DNA from: Eledone cirrhosa
Lineage: Eukaryota
Assembly (NCBI GenBank): GCA_964016885.1
Contig: OZ024741.1
Coordinates: 288,734,001 to 288,798,000, forward strand
Reading direction: 5' to 3'
DNA: 64,000 bases
Part shown: piece after piece, positions 17,244 to 54,781 of the stretch
How the letters are laid out: each line of letters begins with the position of its first letter
Numbering within the stretch: the stretch's first letter is position 1
Position numbers and translations under genes: made by a program
Notes under the pieces: model-generated
Databases searched by the model: none
Told to the model about the DNA's origin: nothing
The model's input: only the letters and a program-made list of their open reading frames with translations

Positions 17244-17637
17244 GCCTCCCCTGCCCTGCTCTCTGCTGGAAGAAATTGGTTGTGTTCAGACATGGAGAGG
17301 GGATGGTTTCCATCTGATTTAAAGCGCCTCAGACACTATGCATGTAACTACAGCATCTCTACCATACCATCGGGCATTTCGGGTCTAAGAAAAAAGAAAT
17401 AGTTCTATTACGAAGAGTTTTGTAGTCTTCATGCGTTTGATTTTATGTCGCACTTTCCTTCGGGAGAGCTATCCACTTATACCTTTGGCATATTTGTCAT
17501 TTGTCTTCAGTATTGGTGAGTCTATGGCGGATGTATCTGTTTCGTATTGGCGAGTCTGTCTCTTTTGTTTTGGAGGGGGTATCCCCTATTGGCGAATCTA
17601 TCTATCTATCTATCTATCTATCTATCTATCTATCTAT

Positions 17638-20600
17638 CTCAGGTCACATTGTATAGATGTCATAGCCATCACCGAGTCCAGAATTCACGACAAGCAGCAG
17701 CTAACCCCCTTGTTCGATGATTTTGAGATCTATGCATCTCTCTGTCAGCCAGGAGGTGGAGGGGGAGTTGCTGTTCTGTTTCGAAAAAACTTGGATCTCA
17801 AAATACAGACGATTCACTTGGACCCGGAGGGCAGTCTGGTGGTCCTGGACGTGAATGGTAGAGAAGGTGGAGCTTTCAGACTGGTGGCCGTATATGCCCC
17901 GACTGGGACATCGCTACCAGAGTTCTTCAAGCATCTGGAGCCATTCCTGGGAACGTCTCGCTCCTTAGTATTAGCGGGGGACTGGAATGGCATCTTAGAC
18001 GCACGTTGGGACTATGTAGGAGCTTGTGATAATAGAGTGGGGTGTAATAGCCTCAAAAATCTCATCAGCCAATTCCAACTGGCTGATAGATATCGACTAG
18101 ACTTCCCAAGTGCACTACTGTGGACGTGGAGCAACCGCACTGGGTCTTCTAGATCGTATTTAGATAGATTTTTAATTAGACAGAATGATAAGGAAACATT
18201 AAGCTGTCCACAAATGCACATGGTTGCCTATTCAGACCACAAATTAGTCACATGCGTAGTCAACCTTGATAGAATACATAGACAGGAACCCGGATACTGG
18301 AAGCTAAACATGTCGCTCCCGGCGCGTAAGGCCTACAGTAAACGGATTAGCACCTTAGTTAAGTGCCAGTTGACGAGGGCAATCGTCAACAACAGGTGGT
18401 GGAGCTCTCTCAAGAGAGCAATTAGAATAGAATCAAAAGCATTTAGCAAGGAAGTAGCTTTAGAAAAAAAAAACTGAAAAGGAACTGGTAGCTAAAATAG
18501 AAGAGGCACTTAGGAATGGCAGTACAGTTGACGTGCTAGCGGCGAGAACGGCACTAGACCAGTTCTTCAACGTGAAACACGAAGGTTATATTGTCAGAAG
18601 TAGAACACGTGCTCTAAGAAACGAGGGAGCCAAAGCTGTTAGGTGGGCCCGAGTGGCAGAGGCGAAAAGTGGCAACAAATCCACAATTCAGTCTTTGCAA
18701 GACAAAGATGGACGCATTGTACTTAAATCCAAGCAGAAGTGCGCGGCCTTCCAGCAGCATTTTGCACAACTGTTCGGGCAAAGCGTTACATCGAGCGAGG
18801 TGATGGACTTCAGCTCCTACCTCGATGGCGTACCGCGACTCTCGAGCACGGATGCGGAGAGCTGCGAAAGGCCGATCACATCGGGCGAAATAGAAGAAGC
18901 CCTAGGCCACTGCGGGAAACGCAAATCACCCGGTTTAGATGGTCTACCCTATGAGTTTTATATAGGCATGCCAGACTTGTTCTCTGGCGTCCTCGAAGCG
19001 GTCTACTGCAACTGGCAGCAGAACGGGAGGATTCCCAGTTCTGCAGGCAGAGGCGTAGTAACGATGATCAGGAAAGATGAGAACAAGGGGGATGAGATAA
19101 GCAATTTCAGGCCCATAACTCTGCTCAACACAGAGTTAAAGATTTTGGCCAAGGTGCTAGCAGCAAAGCTGGTGCTTGTCGTCGAGAAACTGGTAGGGGA
19201 CGTCCAAACGTGTGCAATCCGGACAAGGTCCATACACGACAACCTCCACCTCATGCGATACATCATAGAGAGGGTAGGGTGTAAACCTGGCTTTGGTGGG
19301 GCTCTGATCAATTTAGATCAGTCTAAGGCATTTGATAGGGTCGACCATCAATACTTGGAAGCAGTCCTCAAGGCGGCCGGCTTCGGTCTCGTCTTCAGAG
19401 GCTGGATCGCTGCCATGCACACCAGCATCTGCTCGGCAGTCAAGGTGAATGGCTACCTTTCAGAGCCATTCCAAATCATCTGTTCCATCCATCAGGGATG
19501 CCCTCTCTCCTCCATTCTGTATGTACTGACTCTCGAGCCGTTACTGCGGAAATTGGAGCTGTTGCAGGGCATCCCGATCGAATCAGGACTGCGGAAAGCA
19601 GCGTCAGCCTATGCCGACGACATAACCGTAATGGTGTCGAAAACCTCGGAAATCAGGGTAATCGGCAACCTATTACAGGAATACGAAACGTTGACAGCAG
19701 CAAGACTAAACCCAAACAAGTCTATCGGTTTGCAGCTCTGCACACGGAGAGGCAAGCCCATGCCTTCCGACAGTGTCGTTGGACGCTGGACGGAAGGACC
19801 GGTGAAATTGCTCGGTGTCTGGTTCGGTCCAGACCTGCAGGTGGACAAGAACTGGAACGAGGTCACGGCGAAGGTGTTTGCACTCACTCAGAAGTGGGCT
19901 GAGTGCAAACTCTCCTTGAAAGGTCGAGCGGAGGTGGCGAACACTTACATAGCGTCCGTCATCTACTACCGCTTGACAGTCGTGCCTTGCCCCCGCGAAT
20001 ACCTTACCAAAATGGAACGCCTACTCTTCAAGTTCCTCAGGAAGAAATAGGCTCCATTGGTGAGGAGATCCATCTGCTGTCAACACCCTTCTAACGGAGG
20101 GCTGGGCATGCCGTGGTTGATGGTGCGCAAACATGTGCTGACGCTACGCCATCTCCAGGTATTCCTGACCGGTGAACCGGTGTGGCTGTCGTTTGTGAGA
20201 CAAGCTTTTCCACAACTCGTCTCACTAACAGAGCTGCAGTCCTGGGTCAAGCGAAGACCGAAAATGGGTGCCTGGCACCTCGAGTGCCTACAGGCGCTCA
20301 CAGCCCTCTACCAAGCGGAAACGGCAATCAGCGGAGACTCCACTTCGACATTCTATACGGGATTAGTGGAGGATAAGTGCGACGACGTTCTCGGGGAAAC
20401 TCTAGGCATCGAGGAGGACGAACTGATCAGTCTGTTCGGGAGGACTTTCCGTCCAGGGCCTATGGATAACTTCCAGAGGTCTCTGGCCTGGCAGTGCTAC
20501 CGAGGATCTCTACCAGTTCGAGACAAAATCTACAGGCACGGACGCCCTGGTAGAGATCCAAGATGCGAGCAGGACATCGAAACCGTTCTGCACGCAATTG

Positions 20601-20971
20601 TTCAGTGCCCAGGGGTGACCGACCTGTGGAATTATGTCGAACAGCTGCTGTCGCGTGTGGGACGCATCCAGTTGTCAGCCGAGTCCGTCGTGAGGATCAC
20701 CCCGCCACCTTCATTTAAGAACGAAGGAGAGGCGGTTTTCCTCTGTCTGGTGGCTATGGCGAACGAGGTAATATGGTGGACGAGGTTAAAAGGACTGAGG
20801 GCAAACACCTTTCTCTCCGGACAACACCTTATCCCCTTCTTTAAGTATCACTTCAGAAGAAAGGTGAGAGTGGAGAGAGAGGTGCTACACCCCAGTAAAT
20901 TCGCTGAAAGGTGGGTGAATGTGGCAAAAATGGCCCGAGTGAATGGGCCTTCTCTGTATATAAACCTGTAG
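17638..20971 (+). pseudogene. Disrupted ORF2 (APE endonuclease + reverse transcriptase + C-terminal zinc-binding region)
   Basis: ORFs 17431-18477, 18533-20050 and 20057-20971. Frameshift at the A-run ~18465, in-frame TAG at 20048, and a short deletion in the CxxC region compared with the 21267 copy. Confidence 0.9.
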
Positions 20972-21220
20972 GTTGAGGAAGATAAACATAGGGAAGACGG
21001 GAACACCTAGAAAACGTCTTCCTGGTGTTGAGGGTTGTTCTATCCACGGGGTGTAAAACAACCCTGCAGTAACGTTCCCCCCTATTGGGGATTTCAATTG
21101 TTATTTTATTATATATAGTTTATTGTTATTTATTAATGTTAAAGTTATTTTTATGTAAAACCCCGCCGTCACGTCTTGTAATGTCCCATTTTTGTACGCC
21201 CCTGTGGCAAATAAAGAAAT
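17638..21220 (+). mobile_element. L1-Tx1-type LINE, 5'-truncated, group A divergent subfamily, in (TATC)n
   Basis: APE endonuclease motifs (GDWN, SYLDRF, SDH), RT motifs (KSPGLDG, FRPITLLN, LDQSKAFDRV, QGCPLS, YADD), and a 3' UTR ending CCCTGTGGCAAATAAAGAAAT. (TATC)n flanks at 17596-17638 and 21220-21266. Confidence 0.95.
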
Positions 21221-54023: not shown

Positions 54024-54456
54024 CGTGTTTTCAAAACTGACGACATTTTCGATGTCTTTCAATGAGGTGGTGAGAGTAGGTGACTGCGAGCTTAACACTC
54101 TTACCGCCTCTCCACCACTTCTAGTTATGAACGCAGCGTTCATGACTGAATGCAAGGTTTGGTTACACTTTTTTTTTTCACCGGCGAAATTTTTTTTCCA
54201 AACGAAAATTTCACCCCAGGGAGGGGTGAAGATGACTTGACCCACCGTCTGAAAGTCCAGACGTGGGGTCAAGCTATAAAATAGTAATAAATTTAACAAT
54301 AAATTTTTGATTTCTTACTTAGAAAATCAACAAAAACTTACCAGCGAACTGGCACACGTCTCAAGTAAAACAGATAGACAGATAAATAGATAGACACACA
54401 GATAGATAGATAGATAGATAGATAGATAGATAGATAGATAGATAGATAGATAGTTA

Positions 54457-54553
54457 TGTTTCTTTATTAGCCACAGGGGCACAAAAGAAGGGGACAAATA
54501 CAAAGGGGGAAGTTTACATACAATAAAATGTGTAAAATGTTATCACAAATGCA
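54457..54553 (-). mobile_element. ~97-bp 3' UTR stub of group A Tx1 LINE
   Basis: Nearly identical to 48575-48672, with (GATA)n on both sides. Confidence 0.93.
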
Positions 54554-54781
54554 GATAGATAGATAGATAGACAGATAATCCCACCGGTGTCAACTTTAGC
54601 AGTTATTCTACCAGGATCGTCAACATAAGAACCACATCTGACGCCTCGTTTCCTGTGTAAGATATCATACCTGTATGAGTTATAGCGTCCGACAATATGT
54701 CTTCTAGTTATGGCTCTATGCGTTCTGTGTTCAAATCCTGCTGAGGCTCTGCATACATTCTCCTCAGTACCTAATTTTGTT

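Follow-up and report, generated by a model that had tools for sequence, protein, structure and literature searches.

Several retrotransposons of the Tx1 group that lack long terminal repeats (non-LTR) show a preference for microsatellites: Kibi occupies (TC)n and Koshi (TTC)n in teleosts, and crocodilian Tx1 families are found in (TTCC)n/(TTTC)n (PMC4494074, PMC3812793). The microsatellite targets named in a 2013 review are ACAY, AC, TC, TTC and TAA, and the targeting mechanism is described there as not well understood (PMC3812793); for Tx1 elements, targeting set by the endonuclease is established (PMC4494074, PMC1950540). Here, a stretch of 64,000 nucleotides (nt) from Eledone cirrhosa (contig OZ024741.1, positions 288,734,001 to 288,798,000; hereafter the window) was analysed together with the 3.0 Gb genome assembly. 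The window holds four copies (A1-A4) of a long interspersed element (LINE) at TATC repeats, and copies of a sister lineage (B) at (ATT)n. We regard it as highly probable that a large, recently amplified lineage with an apurinic/apyrimidinic endonuclease (APE) and a reverse transcriptase (RT), likely of the Tx1 clade, inserts at a pre-existing TATC-type motif and leaves a short duplication starting TATCT, likely by way of an endonuclease that nicks the GATA strand.

Insertion at a pre-existing motif

L164 and L207, which belong to different subfamilies, were inserted at the same base, CTAAC^TATCTG, of another repeat. This host repeat encodes an APE-like frame unrelated to the TATC lineage and is, judging from its motifs, presumably RTE-like. 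The uninterrupted 30-mer of the site was found in 252 exact empty copies, and the element 3' end lay at that base in 22 places, always with a 7-nt spacing (3-12 nt allowed) and with several subfamilies represented. None of the 22 insertions carried an extra repeat unit. Twenty of them were inspected: both junctions were in view in 11, and all 11 had a duplication of 7-17 nt starting TATCTGT, no two of the same length. L278 and L288 are short remnants without a duplication, and L270 and L282 are extremely short remnants. Since the motif is present in the empty copies and no unit was gained on insertion, TATC is the target and not a synthesised tail; the motif pre-exists insertion, and normally no repeat unit is added at the 3' end. 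The initial annotation of the window had held that a tail made by the RT could not be the whole explanation, and had named empty sites devoid of (GATA)n as one outcome that would speak against a GATA-specific family; the host-LINE site agrees with the first statement, and its empty copies, which hold the motif, do not refute the second.

The host-LINE site was filled in 19 of 845 copies (2.2%), against 0.13-0.2% for any TATCT, a roughly tenfold difference that is approximate because the latter estimate assumes 8-13 million sites and an element count that is a lower bound. More than five bases are therefore read. One 0.5-Mb stretch of C1 (G000:C1:143305413-143794522; L265-L288) holds this site 16 times in a single orientation, which suggests a tandem segmental array. 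An empty allele was also sought in other samples: no joint across the L016:700-3239 insertion was present among the joints listed (contigs of 4 of 14 runs, repeats skipped, with 330 further joints beyond those listed).

Junction census and target duplications

For the census, 3' untranslated regions (UTRs) without flank were used as queries and the best 40 of 716, 2327 and 2644 candidates were scored per search, which favours young copies; the A2-type set came wholly from contig C1. The copies examined were 40 of A2 type, 29 of A1 type and 29 of B type, and eight were removed, either with the 5' end out of view (L003, L072, L100, L102) or as tandem neighbours (L007, L015, L024, L044). A 5' junction was scored as positive when TATCTATC, with one mismatch allowed, occurred within 25 nt. 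This was so for 33 of the 43 solitary 5'-truncated copies (35 under a looser initial tandem rule), against 1.6% of 57,000 background windows (200 kb from 20 evenly spaced places; binomial p ~6e-51). Chance is therefore excluded, and the 5' junctions of solitary copies are not the random sequence that would have told against the initial annotation. At the 3' end, TATC was found within 4 nt in 60/63 copies of the TATC lineage, and the reversed orientation in 0/63. Both the 3' and the solitary 5' proportions lie above the 20% flank criterion of PMC4494074. Genome-wide, 6,118 of 8,091 exact 3' ends on the forward strand had TCTAT within 4 nt; the reverse-strand count was left unused because some sites were listed twice. 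By the tandem rule used, 18 of the 63 copies stand in head-to-tail arrays.

Identical 5' breakpoints were seen in the tandem copies L006/L007, L014/L015 and L024/L025, and three copies in L006/L007 share one internal deletion. Such tandems likely arose from unequal exchange in TATC tracts or from assembly, not from separate insertion.

Twenty duplications were called by hand. They measure 8-20 nt (about 7-20 nt over all sets, with the orientation fixed) and start with TAT(C/T); many extend into unique bases, and examples with non-repeat bases include L009, L016, L035, L053, L056, L057, L069, L070 and L073. The conserved stretch upstream of the duplication is T(A/G)TC-T(A/G)TC, in which positions -1 and -5 are each C in 17/20. 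The target is a short degenerate motif, approximately T(A/G)TC-T(A/G)TC^TATCTA, which is also used outside microsatellites; (TATC)n microsatellites are its densest substrate. Of the GATA-specific family first proposed for the window, the TATC/GATA at the junctions stands, whereas the specificity is for the short motif and not for microsatellites alone, and the single family gives way to a lineage of many subfamilies with a sister clade that uses (ATT)n.

TATC was present upstream of all 30 full-length copies examined. In 26 of them TCTCTCTATC directly precedes the first element base, at unrelated loci; L139 has only this 12-mer, adjoining unique DNA, and L115 has a duplication, then extra TATC units, then the TCTCTCTATC signature. 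The element itself thus carries the head, which likely derives from transcription start in repeat DNA. The earlier argument from 5' flanks thus holds for truncated copies only, as full-length copies partly bring their own 5' TATC.

Proposed mechanism and alternative explanations

By analogy with Tx1 and L1 (PMC4494074, PMC1950540), the endonuclease would nick the GATA strand of the motif and so start target-primed reverse transcription. The first nick would fall either at GATA^G or, shifted by a single base, at GAT^A; the junctions fit both, as subfamilies differ in the two bases that follow AATAAAGAAA. Variants of the 3' end such as GAAATCTATC were considered as proof of a TpA nick and were rejected, since the element itself includes the two bases that follow GAAA. 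Base pairing between a UAUC-ending RNA and the nicked strand may aid priming. Full-length RNA would start in the TATC-like head, and the end of its cDNA may then anneal to the upstream target, completing insertion. With TATC left at either end of each insertion, subsequent copies, whatever their subfamily, would land beside earlier ones and build up the head-to-tail arrays.

Several points limit or weigh against this account. The choice of site by the endonuclease, and not by RNA-DNA pairing, is likely only, and the motif columns at TAT were set by how the duplications were called. One extra TATC on the 3' side was seen in 3/20 hand-called duplications (L056, L064, L165), which means that a unit can at times come from the RNA. 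Ten of the 43 solitary truncated copies lacked the 5' sequence: L035 and L069 nonetheless have a TATCT duplication and L167 is a boundary mis-call, which leaves seven unexplained. When 30 ends were taken in order of position instead of youth and read by eye (four loci were already in the earlier set), TATC-like 5' junctions were found in 8/13 and TATC tails in 14/17, with ATT tails in 13/13. For the B lineage, ATT was found at the 5' junction of 7/18 solitary truncated copies (background 1.0%). The hairpin loop, which influences target choice in L1, is nearly identical in the two clades, with no clade-specific change in length; no residue therefore yet explains the target switch.

The alternative that survives best, although we judge it unlikely, is that a loosely specific endonuclease cuts widely and that only nicks pairing with a UAUC RNA 3' end, produced by read-through into the donor flank, are extended. 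Post-nick selection by RNA-DNA pairing has a published model, proposed in part for RTE elements (PMC6007223). The poly(A) signal and the final base of the element are just ~6 nt apart, which makes read-through of transcripts into the flank probable; both the occasional extra TATC units (3/20) and the near-identical hairpin loops would suit this explanation as well. The conserved C at -1 and -5 (17/20 each), however, cannot pair with an RNA tail at priming; one particular TATCT site is filled at about ten times the rate of TATCT sites on average; and 0/22 host-LINE insertions gained a unit, though a repeat-ended RNA could pair there in several registers.

Microsatellite tails are made by elements of the L2 and CR1 type, and TATC could likewise be a tail made by the element, with the 5' TATC arising from insertion beside earlier copies or from their remnants. 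The head-to-tail arrays (18/63), the extremely short remnants L270 and L282 and the full-length copies with a TATC-like head are all compatible with this, but it is made very improbable by the 252 empty copies that already hold the motif within the reading frame of an unrelated LINE, by filled copies that add no unit, and by duplications with unique bases on both sides. Random insertion with preferential survival in repeat-rich neutral DNA, or an assembly artefact in repeats, is hardly credible even in a genome so rich in microsatellites, since AGAT runs are rare (5 in the 200-kb background, against 266 AT and 244 ACC), the orientation is fixed (0/63 reversed), several subfamilies reuse the same base and the sister clade in the same window uses a different repeat.

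Element architecture, abundance and classification

Intact natural copies (L038, L042, L043, L044) each have two open reading frames (ORFs). ORF1 encodes 638 amino acids from Met with one CX2CX4HX4C knuckle, and ORF2 1145 amino acids with an N-terminal APE, an RT with YADD and a C-terminal CCHC. L042 and L043 show 3 differences from L044 in 5842 nt, which indicates recent amplification. The exact 3' end motif of both clades together occurs 31,460 times genome-wide (reversed control, 17); the two main TATC subfamilies account for 15,878 exact 3' ends, a lower bound on copy number.

The APE motifs align with human L1 ORF2, and 5' truncation, a fixed 3' end and a short target-site duplication are all present, so that by its predicted proteins and structure the lineage classifies as an APE-type non-LTR retrotransposon of the L1 group. 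Among named proteins, the one closest to ORF2 is from Argonauta hians (66% in RT). A quick RT tree of 60 rows (P0104, P0288 and L172 were excluded as too short) places the TATC copies (6 rows) and the ATT copies (4 rows) in two clades, each with a Shimodaira-Hasegawa-like approximate likelihood ratio test (SH-aLRT) value of 100, nested in an octopod group. This group joins fish proteins named YTX2 and BAC82609.1 with SH-aLRT 83, in a tree without human L1, Tx1L or verified Kibi/Koshi/Keno; membership of the Tx1 clade is for this reason given as likely only. Scores were 308 bits to BAC82609.1 (BLASTP) and 179 bits to human L1 (phmmer), obtained with different programs. Tx1 ORF1 proteins are expected to have a zinc knuckle and RNA-binding folds and not the coiled-coil type of mammalian L1, and the single knuckle found here agrees with this. 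The Pfam scan of ORF1 matched no family; Atlas look-alikes with zf-CCHC, RRM and ZCCHC3 domains (scores 0.90-0.93) provide a lead.

In most young copies (L044:5685-9119 region), the RT region is overlapped by an open frame of 250 codons that lies in a different reading frame of the same strand; this open frame is probably a by-product of codon use. A metagenome scan with a single protein query gave no match. With an alignment, 34 loci were retrieved, mostly 25-48% identical to the first row of the alignment, and none was informative on the target. Three of the metagenome contigs, from distant relatives (L237, L240, L251), have similar sequence downstream of ORF2, which may mark a common target or 3' UTR. 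Contigs of runs X1 and X3 that bear other organism labels agree with parts of the young subfamily to within 0-1 differences per 120-300 nt; the young subfamily may thus be shared with close relatives.

Copies in the window

The features of the window are listed in Table 1. The four copies with sense-strand TATC at both junctions were all recovered as initially annotated, with small boundary shifts.

Table 1. Elements, repeat tracts and junctions in the window (positions are those of the whole stretch).
Feature	Position	Strand	Description
(ATCT)11 tract	17596..17639	+	At the 5' junction of A1, a truncated copy; repeat on the target side; no element end upstream
Copy A1	17638..21219	+	Older TATC subfamily; 5'-truncated within the endonuclease
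(ATCT)12 tract	21219..21266	+	Between A1 and A2, flanking A1 on its 3' side and A2 on its 5' side
Copy A2	21267..22019	+	753-nt 3' fragment of young subfamily; 99.7% to intact copy L044
A2 3' junction	22020..22034	+	Decayed TATC units; 3-unit tail at 22023-22034
A3 3' junction	48546..48576	-	TATC and TAAC units on the element sense strand; tract at 48546-48557
Copy A3	48577..54361	-	Full-length but broken; 87% to L044 along whole length
TATC tract between A4 and A3	54372..54453	-	Imperfect and perfect units; (AGAT)13 at 54400-54451
Copy A4	54459..54553	-	About 95 nt of 3' UTR; 97% to L044
TATC tract at 5' junction of A4	54553..54575	-	A4 truncated; (AGAT)4 at 54553-54568
Copy B	56300..58907	-	Sister lineage; 5'-truncated, internal deletion; followed by (ATT)12 at 56260-56297, not TATC
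Second B-type copy	58910..58981	-	Short 3' end with ATT-type repeats after it; forms a head-to-tail pair with copy B
Dispersed repeat	58980-59320, 55133-55322, 16017-16360, 29235-30270, 36750-36965, 39118-39277, 61614-61758, 63062-63328		Candidate SINE-like repeat described with the sister clade

A1 ends in AATAAAGAAA and is 80% identical to L044; its reading frame is interrupted twice, near 18470 by a frameshift and at 20048-20050 by a stop, and its Pfam matches are PF03372 (E 1.5e-13), PF00078 (E 9.7e-23) and, weakly, PF13966. In A3, ORF1 and ORF2 are both split across several frames (zf-RVT match, E 3.1e-7) and 10 more nt lie between the 5' end of the element and the TATC tract. Pairwise identity is 78% for A1-A3 and 95-97% for A2 and A4 to A3. 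Because A2 but not A3 is nearly identical to the intact copy (99.7% and 87%), the TATC copies of the window sort by sequence identity into three subfamilies, not the two diverged ones first described.

Runs of the AGAT class with at least three units number eight in the window, and six of them are located at A1-A4 junctions. Other runs comprise 111 AT, 44 ACT, 42 ACC and 31 AC; AT, ACC and AC are thus commoner here than TATC/AGAT, as had been noted. The outer flanks (17300-17595 and 54576-54780) showed neither an end with a poly(A) signal nor an element match among the fetched loci. They are therefore not tails of further copies, in agreement with what was originally said of the 5' flanks of A1 and A4.

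Very long simple or compound repeats based on ACC, ACT, TTG and TA, 38-nt and 90-nt unit minisatellites among them, occupy positions 1-3900, 9984-14200, 24868-26200, 32237-34458 and 43000-46300.

The sister clade at (ATT)n

Copy B is 70-73% identical to the TATC lineage, has an RVT_1 match (E 7.4e-16) and falls in the ATT clade of the tree. Across B copies, ATT was found at 27/27 3' ends, and TATC at the 5' junction of 0/18 solitary truncated copies. The lineage (loci L082-L110, L169-L180) likewise forms head-to-tail pairs and has duplications of its own (L083, L090), and the copies examined are older and frameshifted. As the sister clade acts likewise at (ATT)n, specificity likely changed once between the TATC and ATT clades.

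Downstream of the ATT tail, 7/29 B copies have one and the same further repeat, in opposite orientation (L092, L104, L106). The frame in that repeat looks like the C-terminal part of a different non-LTR element, perhaps one akin to Dong/R4, with a restriction-like nuclease. Given these seven adjoining copies, B may often land in the (TAA)n tail of that other element. Upstream of 7/29 B copies lies the dispersed repeat of Table 1, about 200-330 nt long and 80-95% identical, with ATT-type ends, a candidate for a short interspersed element (SINE).

Significance and comparison with known systems

Two APE targets in sister clades provide a natural pair for learning how endonucleases pick sites, and with intact copies and a built-in empty-site control, domain swaps can ask whether the endonuclease or the RNA end decides. 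The abundance of exact 3' ends of both clades explains the frequent GATA and ATT repeats abutting LINE ends in this genome, which is relevant to microsatellite marker design and to accounts of octopus repeat evolution. A wider account is offered tentatively, as possible and not as probable: in an undescribed octopod LINE lineage, the APEs of sister clades (~60% identical) would have switched between a TATC and an ATT target, and the TATC clade, intact and probably active, would carry its own target-like head for homology-guided completion and, through the 2-4 units duplicated at every one of its tens of thousands of insertions, be a main source of the GATA arrays in the genome.

Octopus L1-Tx1 elements have been recently active, with 13 families and 421 insertions in O. 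vulgaris (PMC13282606, PMC8967140), and this class probably includes relatives of the present lineage; the portions of these reports consulted give counts only, and the word 'target' is absent from the main text of PMC13282606. In the portions of the open-access literature covered, with Repbase and Dfam outside the search, no GATA/TATC or ATT target was found for Tx1, and it is quite possible that the lineage has been named elsewhere.

Human LINE-1 ORF2p is the best solved-structure match (E 6.7e-52 across APE and RT), and human LINE-1 resembles the lineage in its duplication lengths and 5' truncation. It differs in having a poly(A) end and in being promiscuous at T-tract/A junctions (PMC1950540), whereas copies of the present lineage are without a poly(A) tail and their ORF1 is of the zinc-knuckle type. 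Dong (R4 clade) is (TAA)n-specific and so shares the repeat class of the ATT sister clade (PMC3812793), but its clade uses a restriction-like endonuclease (PMC4640811, for R4), whereas the B clade uses an APE and has a separate origin. Tx1L of Xenopus and Keno have a sequence-preferring APE and insert at a fixed base of other repeats, as the present lineage does in the host LINE; they target a DNA transposon and U2 snRNA genes, in contrast to the short degenerate repeat motif found here (PMC4494074, PMC1950540).

Kibi, Koshi and the crocodilian Tx1 families are, like this lineage, APE-RT non-LTR elements of the L1/Tx1 group that prefer one microsatellite class. The present targets are TATC/GATA and, in the sister clade, ATT, and not a pure pyrimidine repeat. 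Membership of Kibi/Koshi was considered and rejected: the flanks are TATC or ATT, not (TC)n or (TTC)n, and the likeness is in the way of working only. With only 29% identity to BAC82609.1, the closest fish element that has a name, the lineage is not a member of the families just listed. Microsatellite-specific Tx1 elements are already known as a concept, to which the GATA/TATC and ATT targets are an addition.

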